Shown: positions 3,742 through 64,000 of the stretch, piece by piece
Position numbering within the stretch: position 1 is the stretch's first letter
How the letters are laid out: each line of letters opens with the position of its first letter
Source: a virus
Length of the DNA stretch: 64,000 nt
IMG/VR virus record: IMGVR_UViG_3300009506_000004
Coordinates: 32,001 to 96,000 of that record
Reading direction: 5' to 3' (one strand)
The notes under the pieces: model-generated
Told to the model about the DNA's origin: nothing
The model's input: only the letters and a program-made list of their open reading frames with translations
Databases searched by the model: none
Position numbers and translations under genes: made by a program

Positions 3742-4840
3742 TTCTAGTCTCCTTTAAACAATCAAACATACTAGGAATAGAAAATTCAAAATCAAAATCT
3801 ATTTCATCTTTTATAACACAATCTCTACAACCCGTAAAATGTTCAACATTTAAAAATTCTAGTGAATCTGCTTCAGGTATTTCATGGCATCCTTCACTTT
3901 CAATATGTATTCCATACCTACATTTATATTTAATTTTTGGAAAAGTAACTCTTACATGTACTTCCTTAGCATACCGTTTAATTTGTGGTACCAAATATTG
4001 CATAGTTGGTCCACGTACGATTGAATCATCAACAAGTATAACACACTTATCCCATAATGCTTCAGGAATTAATGTATATTTATTTTCTTGTCCATTCTCA
4101 GTTATAAATGTCCTATCTGTTCCTCTATTTCTAACAATAGCACTAACACAAGGTATACCAGTTTTTTCTGATAGTGCTTCAGCAGCAGCTATAGCCGAAT
4201 CGGGTACTGGTACAATTATATCAGCTTTAGGAACATTTATTAATTGCCCAAGTTCCCTTCGTCTAGCCCATGTACCTTTATTAGTTACATGCGAAAAATA
4301 TACATCTTCAAAACAACATTTGTGACTTGATGAATAATAAAATCTATATACGTTACCATTGGCTAAATTAACTATAGTACCTGGATCCACCTCTGTCCAA
4401 TTTAATTTTGGGTCTGCTGTAGTCTCTGAAGCTACTGCATAGCCCCAATCACTCCATGCAACATATAGCGGGTGGAATCCAAATGGATCCCTCCCAGCCA
4501 TCATTTGATTACCATCTTTCCAAACAAATGAATATGCACCAGCTATTCTTCCACCGTGAAATAAAGTTTTGGCTAATTTAACAGTATCCCCATCTTTAAC
4601 TTCACCATTAAATGCTGTCCAAGTACTTTTATAAAAGTATGGTTGACAAACAGAATCCTCATTAGTTACATACCTAACATGACCAATACCAAAATCATTA
4701 ATTTTTTCTAATTCATTAACTCTATTGGCTAATAGCCGTGTGAAACCAGTAACAATTCCACATTGAGCAAACCCCCTATGTTGAATTCTTGACAACATTT
4801 CAACAAGATTAACAGTATATCCTCCAACTATCCCGCACAT
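3734..4840 (-). CDS. purF: amidophosphoribosyltransferase-like (class II glutamine amidotransferase plus PRTase domain)
   Basis: N-terminal MCGI nucleophile, HRG, GHVRY, NG, RDPFGFHPL, ASE, PVPDS, VDDSIVRG PRPP loop. Confidence 0.88.
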   Translation of the reverse strand: MCGIVGGYTVNLVEMLSRIQHRGFAQCGIVTGFTRLLANRVNELEKINDFGIGHVRYVTNEDSVCQPYFYKSTWTAFNGEVKDGDTVKLAKTLFHGGRIAGAYSFVWKDGNQMMAGRDPFGFHPLYVAWSDWGYAVASETTADPKLNWTEVDPGTIVNLANGNVYRFYYSSSHKCCFEDVYFSHVTNKGTWARRRELGQLINVPKADIIVPVPDSAIAAAEALSEKTGIPCVSAIVRNRGTDRTFITENGQENKYTLIPEALWDKCVILVDDSIVRGPTMQYLVPQIKRYAKEVHVRVTFPKIKYKCRYGIHIESEGCHEIPEADSLEFLNVEHFTGCRDCVIKDEIDFDFEFSIPSMFDCLKETRND

Positions 4841-30934: not shown

Positions 30935-32023
30935 TCAATGAAATTCTGTACCACCGTGTCTAGATTCATAGTCCACACTAATAGATTTTGCAATAAGCCT
31001 ATCATTTAAAATTGGTGAATATGTTTCTTTTAATGGGGTAATAACAATACCTTCCCTTCCTTTAAAAACAGATTTGAAACGAGAAGGATGATTTACCACA
31101 CTACCACCATCTGTAAAATGATTCACAGAACACCATGAGAAACTACCAATAAATAATTCAGGAACAGTTCTTATTTCATATTTTTCACAATATTGTTTAA
31201 CTTCATCCCAATCAATATATACCCCATCAACCTTAATATCATAAATACGTAATTCCGGATTTTCATAACCATAATCTAAATCTTGAATTCCCCTACCAAA
31301 CATTTCCCCATAAATAACAACTGGCACTTCTTCATTACAAGCATCATTAAGTAACTCCATTACGTTTTCAGAAAGCATATTCCAATATTTATTACGAATA
31401 CCTTTAGAATTAAATTCCTTCAGGATCATATAGTGAGAACCAACCATAAATCTCCAATCACCATCATGTGTGTCCCTCACTACACCAAGCCTAATATTTG
31501 TACCATGAATCTTTTCAGTAATTCTTACTTGAGTCCCATCTTTCCAAGCATTAGGGTAAAGTTGAATCCTCTTTATCTTTGTGTATCTTGGGAATTCTGA
31601 GTGCTCTGTTCTTTCTATATCGCCAGCAAGGTTCAACGGTATAGGTGGCTCATATTTATATACACCATAATGAGTATCTAGATCCTGTTCCCAAATAGAT
31701 CTATCTAAGCTGATAAAACCATATGAAGGAATGCCTCTCAATCTAGCTGCAACAATCCTACATTTAGCTTTTTCACCATTTTTATACTGAGCATCCCTAA
31801 GATATTTATCTACACCTAATTCAACAGCTTTTTCTGGATCAATACAAATATCAGTCGGAAAATGTGCTACTATTTGGCCAACTTTTAATTTATTGGCTTC
31901 TTCTAAATTATGGATAACAGTAAACTTACCTACTTGGAGTATAGCTAAATTATCAGCATTAGGATGTTTAGCTATTGAATTAATTTTTCTATATGAAATA
32001 AATTCAGACATTATAATCCTCAC
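30935..32023 (-). CDS. ATP-dependent RNA ligase, DRB0094/Rnl2-type with N-terminal OB domain
   Basis: HPNAD.L, RLRG.PS.G, FP.YT, TEKIHGTN motif I, YGE.FG, REGIV, K.IS. Confidence 0.9.
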   Translation of the reverse strand: MRIIMSEFISYRKINSIAKHPNADNLAILQVGKFTVIHNLEEANKLKVGQIVAHFPTDICIDPEKAVELGVDKYLRDAQYKNGEKAKCRIVAARLRGIPSYGFISLDRSIWEQDLDTHYGVYKYEPPIPLNLAGDIERTEHSEFPRYTKIKRIQLYPNAWKDGTQVRITEKIHGTNIRLGVVRDTHDGDWRFMVGSHYMILKEFNSKGIRNKYWNMLSENVMELLNDACNEEVPVVIYGEMFGRGIQDLDYGYENPELRIYDIKVDGVYIDWDEVKQYCEKYEIRTVPELFIGSFSWCSVNHFTDGGSVVNHPSRFKSVFKGREGIVITPLKETYSPILNDRLIAKSISVDYESRHGGTEFH

Positions 32024-54563: not shown

Positions 54564-55301
54564 TTACGTACGTGTTAATGTAGGTTTAACTGCATTACAA
54601 CGACCAGTCATAGATAATGTTGAAGCAGATAAATCAGCTTCAAATGTATCATATCTAAAATCAGGTAATAATGTTGTTTCTGTTTCTGCCCCACCACATG
54701 GTGGAACATGATCAACTTCTAAATCTACTGCGTATGGTTCACATGGATCACTAGAACTTGAAACCCATTCAGAAGCGCCACCTGTACCATTTAAAGCATC
54801 AAAAGGTGTAATAGTCTCAGATGTCCCTGTAGTGATAAATTCGTAAACACTATCTAAAGTAACATCTAGGGGTTGCTGGTCACCTTCACGAACAGTATCA
54901 AGATTACCGCGATCAAGTAAGTATTCAAATTCTCGATTGACTGTCCAAACAAGATTCCCATCACCCATTTTTACTTCAATTTGCTGATTTAAAAATGTGA
55001 CTGTATCATCATTAGCATAAGTACCAGCACCTAAAGCAGGTGAGAAATCTATATTTGTAGTTGCACCAGTGGATGGTGTACGGTCTGTAACAGTATGCAC
55101 TTGTGTAACAGTTTCACCAGTTAAAGTAAATCTTGCTCCAATAGGAACTTGTGTTGTTACTGCACTATTTAATGATACAGTATCAATATCAAATTCGGTA
55201 TCAGTAGCAGCTGGTGGAGTTGAAGGCTCATTAACTAAAGCCGTACCAGATAAGCCATCTTTGATGCGAATTGTTGCATCACGAAGTTCAATTCTTGCCA
55301 T
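54564..55301 (-). CDS. major tail tube protein, copy 2
   Basis: Synteny (terminator-tube-chaperone-tape measure); GGAGG RBS; paralog of 55314-56042. Confidence 0.75.
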   Translation of the reverse strand: MARIELRDATIRIKDGLSGTALVNEPSTPPAATDTEFDIDTVSLNSAVTTQVPIGARFTLTGETVTQVHTVTDRTPSTGATTNIDFSPALGAGTYANDDTVTFLNQQIEVKMGDGNLVWTVNREFEYLLDRGNLDTVREGDQQPLDVTLDSVYEFITTGTSETITPFDALNGTGGASEWVSSSSDPCEPYAVDLEVDHVPPCGGAETETTLLPDFRYDTFEADLSASTLSMTGRCNAVKPTLTRT

Positions 55302-55313
55302 ATTATCCTCCTA

Positions 55314-56042
55314 TTATGTAGTACGTGTTAATGTAGGTTTAACTGCATTACAACGACCAGTCATAGATAATGTTGAAGCAGATAAATCAGCTTCAAATGT
55401 ATCATATCTAAAATCTGGAAGTAATGTTGTTTCTTTTTGAGCACCACCACACGGAGGAATATGCTCTACTTCAATGTCAACAGCATATGGTTCACAAGGA
55501 TCACTAGAACTTGAAACCCATTCAGAAGCATCACCAGTACCATTTAGAGCATCATACGGAGTGATAACTTCAGATGTGCCTGTAGTTATAAACTCATAAA
55601 CACTATCTAAAGTAACATCCAAAGGTTGTTGGTCACCTTCGCGAACAGTATCAAGATTACCTTTATCAAGCAAATATTCAAATTCTCGATTGACTGTCCA
55701 AACAAGATTCCCATCACCCATTTTTACTTCAATTCGTTGACTCTGAAATGTAATTACTGCATCATCAACAACACCAGTCGCAAGTGCTGGTGTAAAAGTA
55801 ATATCAGTTGTTGGACTTGAAGCTGTTGGTGTTCTAGCTGTAACTGTATGTACTGGAGAACCAGTCTCAGCAGCAATAGTGAACCTTGCACCAACTGGTA
55901 CTAAATCAGTGTCTTCAGTATTCAACACTATTGTATCAATACCAATAGTTGTACCAGTTGGAGTGGTTTCATCAACAGCAGCAGTACCAGAAAGACCATC
56001 CTTAATTCGGATAGTTGCATCTCTTAATTCAATTCTTGCCAT
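55314..56042 (-). CDS. major tail tube protein, copy 1
   Basis: Same synteny and paralogy as copy 2; GAGAGG RBS. Confidence 0.75.
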   Translation of the reverse strand: MARIELRDATIRIKDGLSGTAAVDETTPTGTTIGIDTIVLNTEDTDLVPVGARFTIAAETGSPVHTVTARTPTASSPTTDITFTPALATGVVDDAVITFQSQRIEVKMGDGNLVWTVNREFEYLLDKGNLDTVREGDQQPLDVTLDSVYEFITTGTSEVITPYDALNGTGDASEWVSSSSDPCEPYAVDIEVEHIPPCGGAQKETTLLPDFRYDTFEADLSASTLSMTGRCNAVKPTLTRTT

Positions 56043-56554: not shown

Positions 56555-57147
56555 TACACTACTCCACTAGCTAATTGTTGGAAGTCCAAGATACTATAAC
56601 CAGTAAGATTGTGGATCTGTTCTGGTATGACGCCAATCAATTCTGTACCCATTACTTCCCAAAGTGTATCAAATTCGTTATCTTTTACTTGTTTTATTTC
56701 ATATTTTTTACCACCATAAACAATCCAATCATCTTGAGCAATTTCATATCCTATCGGCAAATCTCTAGGGTCTATATAAAACCATCTTGAAGCACGATCA
56801 TACGTTCCACCATAAACAAATTGCTTATCAGATGAAATCATTGATATAGTTTGTGTTTGTGTACGTTCTATTTTTACTGGTAGTATAATAACACGTGAAA
56901 TAGTAATAACTGTTCTACCAGGCCAAGTTTTAACACCTGTTTTTGTATCAGTAGTTGGATTCCCTTGCCTATACAAGAAAATAGAACCACCATACAATCT
57001 CTTTAACTTATATATTGTATTTCTAATGCGTATTGTCACGTATCTACCTACTATCCTAGAATTTGGTGCAACTGCTTGTGGTACTAATCCTGATGGTAGT
57101 AAACCACTTCCAGGGCTTATGCCATAGCCATACATTACAATTGTCAT
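56554..57147 (-). CDS. putative head-tail joining (stopper) protein
   Basis: D..TG, DDWIVY.GKKYEIK pattern; position. Confidence 0.6.
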   Translation of the reverse strand: MTIVMYGYGISPGSGLLPSGLVPQAVAPNSRIVGRYVTIRIRNTIYKLKRLYGGSIFLYRQGNPTTDTKTGVKTWPGRTVITISRVIILPVKIERTQTQTISMISSDKQFVYGGTYDRASRWFYIDPRDLPIGYEIAQDDWIVYGGKKYEIKQVKDNEFDTLWEVMGTELIGVIPEQIHNLTGYSILDFQQLASGVV

Positions 57148-58388
57148 AGCACTTCCATTTTATTTCTTCTCTCGGCACCTTGTCCACGATATTTCTGAGA
57201 ACCATCTACATCTTCGTATATATCAGCCTGAAGTAATGGAGAACCATCATCATCATAAACAATAAGCTTACCAGTATCAGGATTTGTTTCTAATCTATTT
57301 GTAGTAATCTTTCTGGTCATTTGTACGTCTGTTCCGTCAACGAAGCCACATTTTACTACTGTTGTTCCATTACTTCCATCAGTTAATAATCCTGTTCCTC
57401 TTATAACTATATGGCCACCTGTACATGTTTCATCTAAAATAAGACATCCAGGATCCATATCAACTGATGCATAACACCCAGCTGTGAAATTTTCAAATTT
57501 TATTATACCAGAATAATTTCTTAAATTAAAATTAACATTAGAACCAAAATCAATAATAGGTGGTATATCTTCTGATATTTTACTTACACATGAATAAAAA
57601 CTAACAATAGCATCATTATCAATTACTATATCAGATTCAATGTGACATTCTCTAAAAATACCATCTAATCCAACCAAAATACCTAAAGTACATTGATCTG
57701 CTTCTATTTGGCCCTCCATTGTTCCTTCAATAGATATATTATGGAAATCACAATTATTTACATCAAAACCACCTATATTAATAGTGTCAGAAATTTCACC
57801 ACCAGTCCCTTTAAATGACCAATTTGTAATATTTCTGTCTAATGTAAAACTTCCTCTGATATTAAATGCTCTTAATTTATCTCTTACAGCTATAGTAAAA
57901 GCATCTGCTATATTATCTACAGGATTAGTTGGTGTTCCAACACCTTCGGCTGTACCAGGTACACCATTAAATTCATCTACATAAACAGCTTGTAATAATT
58001 GAGTTAAATCTAATCTAGCAACAGAAGCATCAACTAAATTAGAAACTCTGTGTGTTACAAGAACTGTATAAGTACCAAGAGTAGGAATAACTGTAGATTC
58101 ACCATAAGGATCAGTATATAAATTACCAACGATTAATAATTCATGATCAGCTTCTTGTGGTCTTATTTTCCACCCATTTATTAAAAAGTAAGTTGAACCA
58201 AGATTTTGAACATCAGAAATTGGGTCACCACCTACAGCTCTTAATGCAGGTGCCCATTTCATATTGTCATCAAGTTGTACCTCTTCCTTCCAATCAGAAT
58301 ATAAATCTACTTGTACATCCAATTCAACAACACCCGGCTTCAAAATGAATATCCGGTTTTCCCAGTCTGCTGTCCATTTTGCTGCCAT
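57144..58388 (-). CDS. putative virion structural protein
   Basis: LYS.WKE, GGDP, YFL.NGWKIRP N-domain; GT..NPV; C-terminal YDDDG. Confidence 0.65.
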   Translation of the reverse strand: MAAKWTADWENRIFILKPGVVELDVQVDLYSDWKEEVQLDDNMKWAPALRAVGGDPISDVQNLGSTYFLINGWKIRPQEADHELLIVGNLYTDPYGESTVIPTLGTYTVLVTHRVSNLVDASVARLDLTQLLQAVYVDEFNGVPGTAEGVGTPTNPVDNIADAFTIAVRDKLRAFNIRGSFTLDRNITNWSFKGTGGEISDTINIGGFDVNNCDFHNISIEGTMEGQIEADQCTLGILVGLDGIFRECHIESDIVIDNDAIVSFYSCVSKISEDIPPIIDFGSNVNFNLRNYSGIIKFENFTAGCYASVDMDPGCLILDETCTGGHIVIRGTGLLTDGSNGTTVVKCGFVDGTDVQMTRKITTNRLETNPDTGKLIVYDDDGSPLLQADIYEDVDGSQKYRGQGAERRNKMEVL

Positions 58389-58400
58389 TTAATTGATTCC

Positions 58401-60443
58401 TTATGGGTTAGAATAATTTCTATCAAATTGTTGTTGAATAGGAATAGAAGTGTTTACAGTAGGCATTAGGTAATTTTCTATTCTAATTGGAACATACTCA
58501 ATATGATGGATTATAATATCAACATATGAATTTGTATCAGCTGTAAATGTAAAACTAGTACCAGAATTTTCAACACCATCTACTTCTGTTGTAGTCCCGG
58601 CCTCATAAACTCTTACTTCTGTATTTGCTATTAAGCCAGTTAATGTAACATCAGCAGTACTATTTACTGTAGTAGAACCACCACCTGTATCATCTATTTC
58701 ATCTTCATCAATATTACTTTCAGAGGCGTTAATCGTTACTGTACTAGCACTACTATTCTCACCATGCCATTTAGGTGTACCAGTACTTCCAAAGCCAAAG
58801 AAATTTAATCTACTAGCTGTATAGGAGCCAGATGATGGGAAATGAGTATGATGTTCAATATTATTAGAAATCCAAGCTTGCCCTAAAGCAGGCCCACTTG
58901 ATACAGTAGATGTATTTCTAGCTCTAACATAATATATTGGAATTTTAGCTTCAACATCCCAATCATATGTTCCCCAATCTGATGGCAATGTCCAAGATAC
59001 AGTTTGTGAACCACTAACTGTGAACCCAGTAGTATTATCAGTAACACCACTTAAAGCTGACCAACTTGATCCATCCCAATATTCCCATGTTATAACATTA
59101 CTTGCTCTAGTAGTTGTAGTATTTACTGTTATTTCAGTAAATTTTCTCTCACTACCAAAACTAATATAATCACCAGAATAATAAGGTAAAGCAACATCGT
59201 TGGATGTAGAATTATTAATATCTGTTGTGTCTTCATATACAGGTGGATAAGCTGCTGTACTGTATATCAAACAATATTTAAGTGGTATATCAGTGTCTAC
59301 ATCTGCTATAAAATTAATTTGTTTTATTTGATGGCTACTAACAAATTCTAATCCTCTATCAGGAACTGGGCCAATAATTGTATTATTCAAAAATTCAACA
59401 GTATTTGGTTGAATTTCGCCACATTTAATAAATGTACAACCAATTATGTCTGTTATTGTTGACCCAGCAAATTGAGAAACACCCAATCTCTTAAAAGTTG
59501 TACCGTAAAAATTACAACTATCAATATCAGAATTATCTGTTTCTTGGTCTATTTCTATATAGTCACCATCACTTGAGATAACACCACCTAAAATACCCTT
59601 TCTGTCGTCACCAGATCCAATTACTTCCCCTAATTGAAAATCAGTCGTACCAGTGGAATTTCCTTGAAATACTAACTTAAAACAACCATTTTGTGATAAA
59701 GAGCCACCACGAAAATCATTATTTCTAACAAATATTTTTGCATTAGTATTATCTGTAAAATCAACACTATTTGATCCGGATCCATCACCAAAAATTAATT
59801 CACCAGTTAATAAATAACCACCTCCAGATAATGTTTGTAAAATTCCATATTTATTAGAAGTACTTTCATCATCAGCTGCAATTTCCTCAAAACCCTTCCC
59901 CGGAGTAGTATTTGTTCCTGTTATAATTAACCCTCTACCAAATCTAATTGCATCAATGAATACATTATCAGCTCTATTAGGTTTAGCTGAAGAATATGTT
60001 GATAAACCTATTCTTCTAACTGAATTCCAAGCAAAAGTACCACCACCGGCATTATAAGGATCTGTATTAGTGTCTACATATACATATTGCCAAGCTGGAG
60101 AAGGTACATAACGATAAGTACCAGGTACTCCTCTTCCTATACGGTAATAAAGCCATGCACTAGCACTATCATAAAAAATTAAATCTATTGTTGTAATTTT
60201 GGCTATTTCCATTAAACGATACCAAATTCTTACAACAGTATCTGTTAAATCTACATTACTTCCATAATCATATACTAATTCAGATGTACCAGCAGCATCC
60301 ACTTTACCAGAATAACATGAAGAACCTTGTAAATATTCATCTGTGTTATATGCAGCAGTAATATTAGTTGCATACCAGGTACCAGATTCACTAGATTCAG
60401 CTAATGTCCAATTTGTTAAGTTTGGTGTAATAGTAAGTGCCAT
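58401..60443 (-). CDS. putative receptor-binding or appendage protein C (intact, 680 aa)
   Basis: Carbohydrate-binding-like N domain, beta-helix, WEYWDG module, C-terminal QQFDRNY.NP. Confidence 0.75.
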   Translation of the reverse strand: MALTITPNLTNWTLAESSESGTWYATNITAAYNTDEYLQGSSCYSGKVDAAGTSELVYDYGSNVDLTDTVVRIWYRLMEIAKITTIDLIFYDSASAWLYYRIGRGVPGTYRYVPSPAWQYVYVDTNTDPYNAGGGTFAWNSVRRIGLSTYSSAKPNRADNVFIDAIRFGRGLIITGTNTTPGKGFEEIAADDESTSNKYGILQTLSGGGYLLTGELIFGDGSGSNSVDFTDNTNAKIFVRNNDFRGGSLSQNGCFKLVFQGNSTGTTDFQLGEVIGSGDDRKGILGGVISSDGDYIEIDQETDNSDIDSCNFYGTTFKRLGVSQFAGSTITDIIGCTFIKCGEIQPNTVEFLNNTIIGPVPDRGLEFVSSHQIKQINFIADVDTDIPLKYCLIYSTAAYPPVYEDTTDINNSTSNDVALPYYSGDYISFGSERKFTEITVNTTTTRASNVITWEYWDGSSWSALSGVTDNTTGFTVSGSQTVSWTLPSDWGTYDWDVEAKIPIYYVRARNTSTVSSGPALGQAWISNNIEHHTHFPSSGSYTASRLNFFGFGSTGTPKWHGENSSASTVTINASESNIDEDEIDDTGGGSTTVNSTADVTLTGLIANTEVRVYEAGTTTEVDGVENSGTSFTFTADTNSYVDIIIHHIEYVPIRIENYLMPTVNTSIPIQQQFDRNYSNP

Positions 60444-60452
60444 TTATCACTC

Positions 60453-62513
60453 CTACGGATTATCGTAATTTCTATCAAATTGTTGCTGAATTGGGATAGT
60501 TGTATTTATTGTAGGAATTGTATATCCTTCTATTCTAATTGGAACATACTCAATATGATGTATAATAATATCTACATCAGAACTAACATCTGCACTAAAT
60601 GTAAAACTAGTACCAGAGTTTTCAACACCATCTACCTCTGTTGTAGTTCCGGCTTCATAAACTCTTACTTCTGTATTTGCTATTAAGCCAGAAAGTGTAA
60701 TATCAGCTGTGCTGTTAACAGTAGTAGAACCACCTCCAGTATTTTCTATTTCATTTTGAGCAATATTACTTTCAGAAGCATTAATTGTAACTGTACCAGC
60801 ACTACTATTCTCACCGTGCCATTTAGGTTCACCAGCCGGGCTAGTACCGATGAAATTCAAATTACTAGCAGTAAATGTTCCTGATGATGGAAAATGGACA
60901 TGATGTTCTACAACATCATTTAAGAATACTTGTGCTAATTTAGGGATATTAGATAAAGCAGATGATATTCTTGCACGGATATAATATAACGGTGTTTCTA
61001 AATCAATGGCTACTTTTGCCCAATCACTTGGAGGATCGAAAGTAACATCTTGTAAACCACTTACACTAAAACCACCAGTATCATCTACCAAACCACTGAG
61101 AGGTTCCCAAGAATCACCATCCCAATACTCCCATACTATTAAACCATCAGCTCCAAAACTCCAGCCACTATTACCACCTTGATCAAGGACTGTGCCATCA
61201 GTAGCATCTATTGCAGAAGTAACATATGTACATACAGAATCTAAAACATTACAATATGATGCTGACCCGGTTATTCCACTTGCTAAATTAAAATTTAAAT
61301 TATCAATATTTAATTGAGTACCATTAACTCCACCTAAAGTTAATATGCCTCCATCTAAATCAAATGTTCCATCATTCATATCATAATCAGTACCATTATG
61401 AAATCTAAATCCAGTAGATCCATTTATGCTTACATTTCCATCACTCCAAACTGTATATCCAGCTAGGTCAAAATCACCATCTATACCAGTGAAAGAATCT
61501 GTATATAAATCTGAAGCAAGTGTCAAACTACCACCAGATTTATTTACTTCAATATCATCTAAAATACTCCCATAATTATCAGTAAATATTTGATCATTAG
61601 TACCAGAAAAAATTATAGTACCTGTTCCTTTTGACCAATAACTATCAGTAGAATTATAATCAATATAAAGATCACCTTGAAATTCTAAATCTGGATTATT
61701 GATAGAACAATTAAAATGTACTTCATTAGAACCAGATACTAACCCTATTCTGCATTCATCTGTAAAAATGGGACAAGTTGAACCAACTCTAATTTCTACA
61801 TCAGCATCATTTCCTTGTGTACTAAACCATATAGGTATATTTATTGTCCCTGTTCCACTTAGCAAAAATGGACTTGATGCATCATCGCCCCAAATAGAAT
61901 ATGTTATAGCTGCATCACCATTTAAACTACCATTTACAACAGCTTCTTTTAGGATAATTATACCAGGTTCTTCTGGTGGATCGGTGTTATTACATATTAA
62001 GATTGCATTATTTTCTATAATTAATTTATTTATTATTTTTATACCAACTCCAAAATCTAAATAAGTAGCACCATTAACTATGGTTAAATCATATAAAGCA
62101 TTAGTTTTCCCACAATTATGTGTATTATAAGAACCTGTTAATCTTATATGTGATGTACCATAAGTCCAGGTACCTTGAGTATAACAATAAAAATTTCCAC
62201 CTACTGTTAATGTACAATTACCTAAATCTACAGCAGAAGTAGAACCAGCAAAATTACAACTATCAATTATATTATGACTATAAGAAGAATCAGCAAAATC
62301 TAATAAACCATCAAAACTTGTTATTACAATTTTATAACAATCTATTGCTATATCAGTAATACAAGTTCCACTACCAGTATAAGATCCATCAAATGTAGCT
62401 GTATCTGCTGTCCCAGGTACACCAGCACCACCCGAACCACCAGATGATGTTGACCAATTACCTGAATTATTCCAATAACTACTTGATGCACCAACCCAAT
62501 ATAATATAGCCAT
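60453..62513 (-). CDS. chimeric appendage protein B (foreign beta-helix N part plus C-type C-terminus)
   Basis: YWVG...NWS..SGG.GGA.VP...D...FD start; the last 232 aa are paralogous to protein C. Confidence 0.75.
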   Translation of the reverse strand: MAILYWVGASSSYWNNSGNWSTSSGGSGGAGVPGTADTATFDGSYTGSGTCITDIAIDCYKIVITSFDGLLDFADSSYSHNIIDSCNFAGSTSAVDLGNCTLTVGGNFYCYTQGTWTYGTSHIRLTGSYNTHNCGKTNALYDLTIVNGATYLDFGVGIKIINKLIIENNAILICNNTDPPEEPGIIILKEAVVNGSLNGDAAITYSIWGDDASSPFLLSGTGTINIPIWFSTQGNDADVEIRVGSTCPIFTDECRIGLVSGSNEVHFNCSINNPDLEFQGDLYIDYNSTDSYWSKGTGTIIFSGTNDQIFTDNYGSILDDIEVNKSGGSLTLASDLYTDSFTGIDGDFDLAGYTVWSDGNVSINGSTGFRFHNGTDYDMNDGTFDLDGGILTLGGVNGTQLNIDNLNFNLASGITGSASYCNVLDSVCTYVTSAIDATDGTVLDQGGNSGWSFGADGLIVWEYWDGDSWEPLSGLVDDTGGFSVSGLQDVTFDPPSDWAKVAIDLETPLYYIRARISSALSNIPKLAQVFLNDVVEHHVHFPSSGTFTASNLNFIGTSPAGEPKWHGENSSAGTVTINASESNIAQNEIENTGGGSTTVNSTADITLSGLIANTEVRVYEAGTTTEVDGVENSGTSFTFSADVSSDVDIIIHHIEYVPIRIEGYTIPTINTTIPIQQQFDRNYDNP

Positions 62514-62515
62514 AA

Positions 62516-63862
62516 TTAAATTCTCACAGTACTAGTATTTATACCTAATTTTGAAAAATGACTACGAGAGCCAAAAACAATATGCCCTAGATATGAACTA
62601 TCTGCTACAATAACATCATCTGATGTAGAATCATTTGCTTCATCAGTATATTCAGTATATGCACTAGTTACAGTACTGTAATGATATACTTTTCTAATTG
62701 GTTGATCTTCAGTTGTGCCAGCGATGAAATCAATTTGTTTTATTTGATGTCCACTTACAATTTCTAATCCACGATCAGGAACTGGGGCAATAATTGTGTT
62801 ATTTAAAAATTCAACAGTATTTGGCTGAATTTCATCACACTTAATGAATGTGCAACCAATGGCTTCTTGAGTTGTTGAACCAGCCATTTTTATATTACTA
62901 GCATTTTCAAATGTTACACCATACAAATTACAACTATCAATATCTGAAGAATCTGTTTCTGAATCAAAAGTAAATTTTTCATCTTCAGAAACAAATGTTG
63001 GGCCTAAAGCACCTTGTCTATCGTCACCTGTCCCATTTAATACACCTAATTCAAAATCAGTAGTCCCTGTAGCATTTCCTACAATTGAAATATTATAAAT
63101 TCCAGTATTATCTAAAGTACCAACTATTTTTTCGTTGGTTCTCATAAAAATAACAGGTGCATCTGTATCTGTAAAATCTACACTACTTGACCCAGAAGAA
63201 TCACCAAAAATTAATTCACCAGTTAAAAGATAAGCACCACCTTCTAATTTTTGCAAAATACCATATTTATTAGAAGTGCTTTCATCAGTATCTGCAATTT
63301 CTGCAAATCCTTTTCCAGGAATAGAATTCGTACCAGTAATAATTAACCCACGACCATATCTTATAGCATCAATAAAGACATTATCTGAACGCGCTGGTTT
63401 AGTAGTCATAAAGCATGACATACCAATTTTTCTTAATGTACTAAAGCTAACAGTACCACTACCAGTATCAAAAGGTGTATTTACATCAACTACATAGTAA
63501 TTCCAACCTTCTTTAGTTACATCATTACCACCAACATACCATTCTCCCCAGTTCCCAGATCCATCAACCACGTAAATACGTATACCACCATTAGCTTTAG
63601 AATAATATTTATTTATTTCGCCATGTCTAGCCCAAATTCTAATAACTTGATTTGAAAGGTTTTGATTACTCCCATAATTATAAATCATATAAGAGCGAGT
63701 GGCAGCAGTTTTTACAGTACAAGACCAACAAGATGATCCTTGTACATATTCATCTGTGTTTTGCCCCCAACCATTATTAACTTGTAAAACTTCCCAAGAA
63801 CCTGATTCACTAGATTCAGCCAATGTCCAATTTGTTAAATTTGGTGTTATAGTAAGAGCCAT
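62516..63862 (-). CDS. truncated appendage protein A (paralog of the N-terminal two thirds of C)
   Basis: Starts MALTITPNLTNWTLAESSESG like C, with GAGGA RBS; the ORF track start at 63946 adds 28 aa. Confidence 0.75.
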   Translation of the reverse strand: MALTITPNLTNWTLAESSESGSWEVLQVNNGWGQNTDEYVQGSSCWSCTVKTAATRSYMIYNYGSNQNLSNQVIRIWARHGEINKYYSKANGGIRIYVVDGSGNWGEWYVGGNDVTKEGWNYYVVDVNTPFDTGSGTVSFSTLRKIGMSCFMTTKPARSDNVFIDAIRYGRGLIITGTNSIPGKGFAEIADTDESTSNKYGILQKLEGGAYLLTGELIFGDSSGSSSVDFTDTDAPVIFMRTNEKIVGTLDNTGIYNISIVGNATGTTDFELGVLNGTGDDRQGALGPTFVSEDEKFTFDSETDSSDIDSCNLYGVTFENASNIKMAGSTTQEAIGCTFIKCDEIQPNTVEFLNNTIIAPVPDRGLEIVSGHQIKQIDFIAGTTEDQPIRKVYHYSTVTSAYTEYTDEANDSTSDDVIVADSSYLGHIVFGSRSHFSKLGINTSTVRI

Positions 63863-63956
63863 TGGTTCCTCATTTGTTTTTACATTTGCATATTGTTTTA
63901 AAATTAATCCAGATTTTGCCGATAAGTTTTTCTTTTTACGGGGCATAATTCGACAA

Positions 63957-63982
63957 AATTGGGCTAGAAAACTAGCTCAATT
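63957..63982 (-). terminator. hairpin, possible terminator of an upstream gene
   Basis: AATTGAGCTAG-TTTT-CTAGCCCAATT. Confidence 0.4.
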
Positions 63983-64000
63983 CCTTTTATGGATTAGAGT

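Follow-up and report, generated by a model that had tools for sequence, protein, structure and literature searches.

Probable capture of a beta-helix gene within a module of a phage fibre gene, with possible re-assembly of the divided protein

Phage fibre genes evolve by module swapping, and intermediates of the process are rarely caught. The locus described here raises the question of how a fibre gene came to lie in two pieces, the second of which begins as an unrelated protein, and whether the products of the two pieces could still form one fibre. The window analyzed is the 64,000-nucleotide stretch from base 32001 to base 96000 of the IMG/VR record IMGVR_UViG_3300009506_000004, and coordinates are given within this stretch. 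The virus record has 129,439 bp with direct terminal repeats and is rated complete; the phage is uncultured, and the public sequencing runs in which the stretch occurs come from marine sediment metagenomes of one study. Three minus-strand genes of the virion structural block are concerned: A (62516-63862; 448 amino acids), a truncated fibre paralog; B (60453-62513; 686 amino acids), a chimera; and C (58401-60443; 680 amino acids), an intact paralog composed of an N-terminal module (N-module), a module J and a C-terminal tail module T. We propose that a full-length fibre gene received one fixed, non-homologous insertion, with a probability of about 0.75 that applies to this event and not to any re-assembly of the products.

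The two pieces of the divided gene were delimited by comparison with C. Residues 1-436 of A aligned by BLAST with residues 1-435 of C (244 of 447 positions identical, 55%; E 1e-151), and the next 11 residues of A are colinear with C by eye, up to R447 of A, which is R446 of C. Residues 455-686 of B matched residues 447-680 of C (162 of 234 positions identical, 69%; E 9e-108), with 81% identity between B 535-686 and the C tail. The A and B-tail pieces abut on C with no residue lost or doubled, and their 447 and 232 residues sum to 679 against 680 in C. An earlier note on this DNA, made from the sequence alone, had described a gene-sized segment with its own stop and start that splits the paralog and whose open reading frame (ORF) is fused in frame to the C-terminal part, and it had joined A and the B tail into a protein of 679 residues. 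BLAST colinearity confirmed the joined protein, and the ORF list and the sequence agreed with the coordinates and frames of the segment (61152-62521). The 447 residues assigned to A are those that match C; to its own stop A has 448 residues (R447, I448, TAA), and I448 and the stop derive from the insert.

The insert measures 1,370 bp and consists of an 8-nt leader (62514-62521; an Ile codon, TAA and TT) and the 454 codons of a region called X (61152-62513), which form residues 1-454 of B from their own Met to a conserved GGN..W.F motif. The ATG of B lies 5 nt past the A stop and in a different frame. The dinucleotide GA noted earlier on both sides is present, but it is only 2 nt long and expected by chance in 1 of 16 cases; a repeat search over 60900-62800 found no direct or inverted repeat longer than 2 nt at both junctions. 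The self-contained 455-aa gene that the insert would form as a circle is arithmetically correct (1362 nt of ORF + ATT + TAA + TT = 1370), but it follows from the layout and is no evidence for a circle. Frameshifting or read-through linking A to B was considered and rejected, no slippery heptamer being seen by eye before the A TAA. A match between A and C extending past the A stop, with one TAA inside, was likewise set aside as short, weak and in a frame other than that of B.

The position of the joint within J defines what was divided. J (C residues 404-525, about 122 amino acids) is a discrete module found at many positions in many proteins of the 80 viral loci compared, and the A|B joint falls between its positions 43 and 44. 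J1 (62522-62653; A residues 404-447) holds the N-terminal 43-44 positions of J; J2 (60921-61151; B residues 455-531), delimited by BLAST of J against B, holds positions 44-122 with strands 4-8; and T follows (60453-60920; B residues ~532-686 and the stop codon). The AlphaFold (AF2) model of C (pLDDT 84.9, pTM 0.82) places the joint in the loop 445-450, which connects strands 435-444 and 451-456 of a beta-sandwich; strands 426-431 and 435-444 of J precede the loop, and those from 451-456 to 519-528 follow it. As modeled, the insertion bisects this beta-sandwich domain in a hairpin loop and not at a domain border, whereas the earlier note had the cut separate a head domain from a C-terminal module. 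The C-terminal module itself is shared, as had been claimed, and portable: T2, the last 80 residues, stands at the very C-terminus in 74 of 75 carriers, from which we infer a constant assembly or docking end.

The proteins belong, by sequence comparison, to a modular phage fibre family (N-module, J and T) with a predicted role in the virion. C had 47 homologs at E <= 0.001, the best with 56% identity over 100% of its length; full-length homologs of 680-720 amino acids exist, with P0002-P0004 spanning 100% of C. The 204 collected proteins include the combinations N-module plus T2, J plus T2 and N-module plus J. No Pfam or PHROG family was matched by A, B, C or the neighboring 414-aa protein, barring a carbohydrate-binding module (CBM)-like match in A that lies below the cut-off (Mann_GBD_bact, E 0.0075), and Foldseek matches of C comprised a capsid turret protein, a phage portal-tail complex, CBMs and GH87. 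The earlier label of receptor-binding paralogs stands as a prediction: the major capsid gene lies on one side of the locus and a weakly matched head-closure gene on the other, with tail genes beyond, and the best structural matches of C include the capsid turret protein as well as CBMs.

Two further members of the family have unusual features in J. A GC-rich metagenome homolog (L092) has an in-frame TGA inside J1 (2379-2381 of that locus) at a conserved aromatic position, with the frame open on both sides; candidate explanations are a nonsense mutation, an error and recoding of the stop. In P0087 (338 amino acids, on a 3,053-bp contig) a Met just before J strand 3 is followed by J2 and the tail, and this may be a second gene beginning inside J or a miscalled start.

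The inserted sequence is related to a different and widespread family. A HMMER search with B over 1.84 billion representatives gave 2,226 matches at E <= 0.001, and the edges of the matches drop sharply at B 453-458; those of the X family span B 1 to 453-458. Fifteen free-standing relatives of X (440-514 amino acids) begin at residue 1 with the N-terminal motif of B and end 15-35 residues past the GGN..W.F motif, where a stop follows. B passes into the fibre tail immediately past this motif, and X is without the last codons and the stop of its family. X stands alone in 75 of the 204 collected proteins and is joined to J or T in B only (1 of 204). By these comparisons, the insert is nearly the whole gene of a widespread free-standing family, taken from 8 nt before the start codon. 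No second copy or donor of X was found in the genome at E <= 10.

The fold of X, judged from its AF2 model (pLDDT 89.9, pTM 0.89), is a right-handed parallel beta-helix. VIA-align matched the model to 104 chains at Z >= 8, with the highest scores for 7akv_G (Z 13.6; root-mean-square deviation (rmsd) 5.5; 325 residues aligned), 6bea_A (Z 13.5; rmsd 5.2; 339 aligned) and 1bhe_A (Z 12.6; rmsd 4.0; 246 aligned). The top matches are autotransporter passengers and a polygalacturonase, and phage tailspikes scored Z ~10-11.6. Across beta-helix proteins of these kinds (autotransporter passengers, pectate lyase/polygalacturonase and tailspike depolymerases) the model aligns at Z 13.6 to 9.3, but what they have in common with X is the fold alone, at 7-13% identity. 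Foldseek found nothing for X in the Protein Data Bank at E <= 0.001, and in the ESM Atlas X was placed only in clusters without names, most of them viral, at a recognition level under the usual mark; these serve as a lead only.

Family-wide comparison indicates that the divided state is the derived one, J being undivided in the other carriers examined. Among viral-locus ORFs, 80 of 83 have a BLAST alignment to J that begins no later than position 31; the same holds for 77 of 79 collected proteins and for 19 of 20 metagenome-locus ORFs, and the five late starts other than that of B are all internal to longer ORFs. Among the carriers examined, B alone begins J at position 44, directly after an unrelated domain. 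P0011, the protein closest to A in the N-module (68% identity), reads past the joint unbroken; its J is of another type, and the homology of A to P0011 stops ~40 residues upstream, near the J start. The syntenic phages L005, L006, L007 and L078 have one or two undivided copies at the same locus in profile scans.

Two quantitative arguments favor one event. Among identical residues, the share of identical codons was 0.69 for A against C and 0.68 for the B tail against C, with 0.52 expected from codon usage; such equal synonymous divergence fits two halves of one former paralog. In addition, had A been truncated and B been fused in two independent events, the two breakpoints would be expected to coincide at one codon of a ~680-codon gene in only about one of several hundred cases, and the improbability of this coincidence strongly favors a single insertion. 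Gene conversion between the B and C tails was tried as a separate candidate and rejected: no identical-DNA tract was found, and the identity peak of 0.93 in a 20-codon window falls in the most conserved stretch of the protein.

The proposed sequence of events begins with an undivided paralog of C, "A-full", with the order N-module, J, T. A single non-homologous event would have brought a piece of foreign DNA into this gene, comprising the last 8 nt before a free-standing X gene and X itself from the start codon to just past its C-terminal motif. It would have landed in the hairpin loop between J strands 3 and 4 with no recipient base lost. The stop codon of the leader would then terminate the shortened product of A (A'), and the X start would begin B, reading in frame into J2 and T. 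Because no recipient base was lost and no repeat was left, we infer that the likely route was not site-specific recombination but either capture of a linear fragment during double-strand-break repair or a template switch, out and back, in replication. The event looks like a one-time recombination accident, and nothing suggests reversibility.

If the insertion occurred in this way, the two halves must come together again, or one or both will be impaired. A' retains the CBM-like N-terminal domain, a beta-helix and the first three strands of J, without the tail module; B has X, five J strands and T. The interaction was modeled with B 455-686 and A 300-448, X being left out. The complex reached an ipSAE of 0.81 (runs 0.81, 0.77 and 0.82), against 0.00 for the best of three controls; the mark applied is reached by 58 of 80 solved complexes and by 2 of 110 mismatched pairs, counts that apply only roughly here because the complex was modeled from our own alignments. 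At least 93% of contacts are common to the runs, and the partner pLDDT is at least 83. In the model A strands lie between B strands, A 427-432 pairing with B 510-514 and A 437-441 with B 488-492 and 529. Binding between A' and B is supported, though not shown, by the model.

A' and B would be made together, since B starts 5 nt past the A stop, and the three J1 strands of A would slot between the J2 strands of B and rebuild the sandwich. The fibre would then carry the original head of A and the new beta-helix of X on one shared tail. We regard this course, from joint synthesis to two heads on one tail, as a tentative prediction whose chances fall somewhat short of even. The fuller proposal, a natural fragment-complementation fibre in which A' and B are translationally coupled and the old CBM/beta-helix head is joined by the captured X on one tail, is possible but slightly less likely.

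Several observations weigh against the insertion and the proposed re-assembly. The arrangement was seen in one genome only, and its direction and age are judged from comparison across the family. Searches for a relative that has this insert, or a near-identical empty site, were negative: megablast of 58300-64000 against 50,697 phage records gave no match, single-protein scans of IMG/VR with C and with X gave no relative, and neither the 80 loci kept from an IMG/VR profile scan (best 38% identity) nor the 27 loci of a metagenome scan (best 54% identity, on a 1.5-kb contig) contained either form. Among the contigs listed, 60744-64000 is nearly without cover, so junction-spanning reads were not seen directly. 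The insert has no compositional sign of foreign origin or recency; its codon usage is within the genome range (distance 0.096; mean 0.077, sd 0.043), and X would therefore be an old resident or come from a similar phage. As to re-assembly, the Shine-Dalgarno-like sequence of B is weak by eye, and halves of split genes tend to pass the complex test, the alignments being of undivided homologs. Finally, J1 of A is slightly more diverged relative to the N-module than in other pairs (0.64 vs. 0.71), a noisy comparison over 44 residues.

This divergence would also fit relaxed selection on a useless stump. Under that explanation the same single insertion took place and the halves do not re-assemble; A' would be dead and decaying, and B would function alone or neither would. 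The predicted placement of J1 strands between J2 strands is consistent with it, each half alone being without part of the sandwich, as is the lack of a second genome showing that the arrangement persists. Against it, the A frame is open over 448 codons, and A keeps all 37 family-invariant positions of the N-module and six nearly invariant positions of J1 (T406, D416, G431, F436, I441 and T445, in A numbering). The short distance between the A stop and the B start and the complex model that passes the mark also argue against a dead stump, and we consider this outcome unlikely.

A second alternative holds that the split state is ancestral and that genes such as C arose by deletion of the intervening gene, or that two separate events occurred, a truncation and the fusion of X to the tail of another paralog. 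The high modularity of the family and its varied module combinations would accommodate either course. Both are made very unlikely by the undivided J of every other carrier examined, by the improbability of two independent breakpoints at the same codon and by the equal synonymous divergence of A and the B tail from C.

The earlier note had favored cassette integration, possibly reversible, in which X excises and integrates by site-specific recombination and switches the head on the tail module. In its favor, the insert has the size of a gene and precise bounds, a circle of it would make a self-contained ORF, and the 2-nt GA is common to both ends. The note had seen no recombinase in the window; in the complete 129,439-bp genome, tyrosine and serine recombinases (PF00589, PF00239) had no matches at E <= 1, and PF00078 had none either, so that the genome gave no reverse transcriptase on which a diversity-generating retroelement could be called. 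The profiles PF00589, PF00239 and PF00078 matched in 14, 13 and 4 of 14 control genomes, respectively. A recombinase encoded by the host or of an unknown type could escape this search. The junctions have no end or inverted repeats, the genome has no second X copy, the architecture of B is unique among the 204 collected proteins, and the insert is a truncated fragment, without the C-terminal tail and stop of free-standing X relatives. Empty-site and circle joints were absent from the contigs of three runs, but 60744-64000 is almost uncovered among the contigs listed and contigs drop rare variants, so that this negative is uninformative. Invertible tail-fibre segments (the G segment with Gin of Mu, the C segment with Cin of P1/P7) need a serine invertase and inverted cix/gix sites. 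They resemble the present locus in joining alternative fibre parts to a constant gene part; unlike them, this locus yielded neither serine invertase nor inverted sites. A reversible or mobile cassette has a very small probability.

Other kinds of mobile element were also considered and rejected. An intein is excluded by the stop codon that the insert introduces and by its new start, which is out of frame with A. Rfam gave no match at E <= 1 in 57000-64000, thus no ribozyme of the described families, and a group I or II intron was rejected for those families. A homing-endonuclease insertion was set aside on the lack of any Pfam or PHROG match in B and on the predicted beta-helix fold of X. An insertion sequence or transposon was rejected on the lack of terminal inverted repeats and on the coding capacity of the B strand, which is filled by the beta-helix ORF; a 121-aa frame lies on the opposite strand of the insert, and the verdict covers the B strand only. 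The 2-nt GA could be a target-site duplication, but chance alone would give it in 1 of 16 cases.

An assembly artefact, that is, a chimeric contig of unrelated reads, is scarcely credible, although the genome is metagenome-assembled and the run contigs examined do not cover 60744-64000. There are no junction repeats to mislead an assembler, a chimera would not be expected to leave both sides exactly colinear and in frame, and the proteins A, B and C are each on record on two contigs. Of the 31-mers sampled from 58401-63946, a share of 0.99 occurs in runs of two samples from the same study (which may be the source samples and are then not independent), and in run X1 short contigs of words common to the B and C tails show roughly double the depth of unique flanks (387-400 vs. 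~204).

The genomic setting of A, B and C is conserved. The block opens with the large terminase, portal, adaptor and scaffold genes and that of a P22-type major capsid protein. A 699-aa protein of unknown function separates these from A, B and C, after which come a 414-aa unknown, a gene that weakly matches head-closure proteins (E 0.006), a tandem pair (242 and 245 amino acids) and the tape measure; L005-L007 and L078 have the same gene order at the locus. The GC content is ~32%, and GC at third codon positions is only 8-14% in the fibre genes of the locus. A may start at an ATG at 63946 instead of 63862, 29 codons upstream, which gives a 476-aa form that is the gene call P0008 in the protein collection. 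A terminator-like hairpin (63947-63987 and 63963-63976) lies between the end of the 699-aa gene and this possible start, and A, B and C may form a transcription unit of their own. In L006 (9594-15025) there are two full-length tandem paralogs of the fibre family, with stop-to-stop frames of 915 and 895 residues, the first of which has a basic N-terminal extension resembling the 476-aa form of A.

Other observations concern neighboring genes. The tandem paralogs of 245 and 242 amino acids (54564-56042, minus strand) have identical first 15 residues; both match a single 260-aa protein (stop-to-stop frame) of the syntenic L005 and L006, and one has a weak PHROG match to "distal tail protein". Just upstream of the major capsid ORF in L085 lies a 194-aa ORF (3972-4556; genome 99872-100456, minus strand) with a sub-threshold Endonuclease_7 match (E 0.0016; 18.7 bits against a cut-off of 23.6). 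A nuclease ~4.5 kb from the insertion could be relevant to break-driven recombination. No group I intron near the capsid gene was recovered in L085, where Rfam gave no match at gathering level.

By analogy, the nearest described case appears to be the "genes-in-pieces" arrangement of nrdA in Aeromonas phage Aeh1, which is reported to be split by the free-standing homing endonuclease gene mobE, with products that re-associate without RNA or protein splicing, as demonstrated biochemically and dependent on new tails (Crona et al., 2010; PMC3045599). In both cases a whole foreign gene within a phage gene gave two adjacent ORFs. As described there, the nrdA insert is a selfish endonuclease made as a separate protein, whereas X is a beta-helix of structural type fused in frame to the downstream half, and re-assembly was shown biochemically for nrdA (PMC3045599) but is predicted by model only for A' and B. 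Fragment or domain mosaicism has been reported for phage host-interaction proteins (Smug et al., 2023; PMC10684548). The present family resembles that picture in the many combinations of N, J, T1, T2 and X and in the tandem paralogs at the same locus of syntenic phages. Within the family, the homology between A and P0011 breaks near the J start; the A/B insertion differs in cutting mid-domain and adding a stop and a start, which gave two genes.

The locus preserves what was probably a single event with base-pair clarity: nearly a whole gene in a mid-domain loop, leaving two open genes and no pseudogene. If the halves do not re-assemble, this would be an ordinary disruptive insertion in a hypervariable locus. 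If they do, host-binding heads could be added by non-homologous capture away from domain borders and rescued by strand complementation, and a second binding or depolymerase head would have been grafted onto a fibre in one step with the first head kept. Re-assembly would also extend "genes-in-pieces" from endonuclease-split enzymes to virion proteins, and it would point to graft-tolerant loop positions in the sandwich module that may be useful for phage-fibre engineering in laboratory strains.

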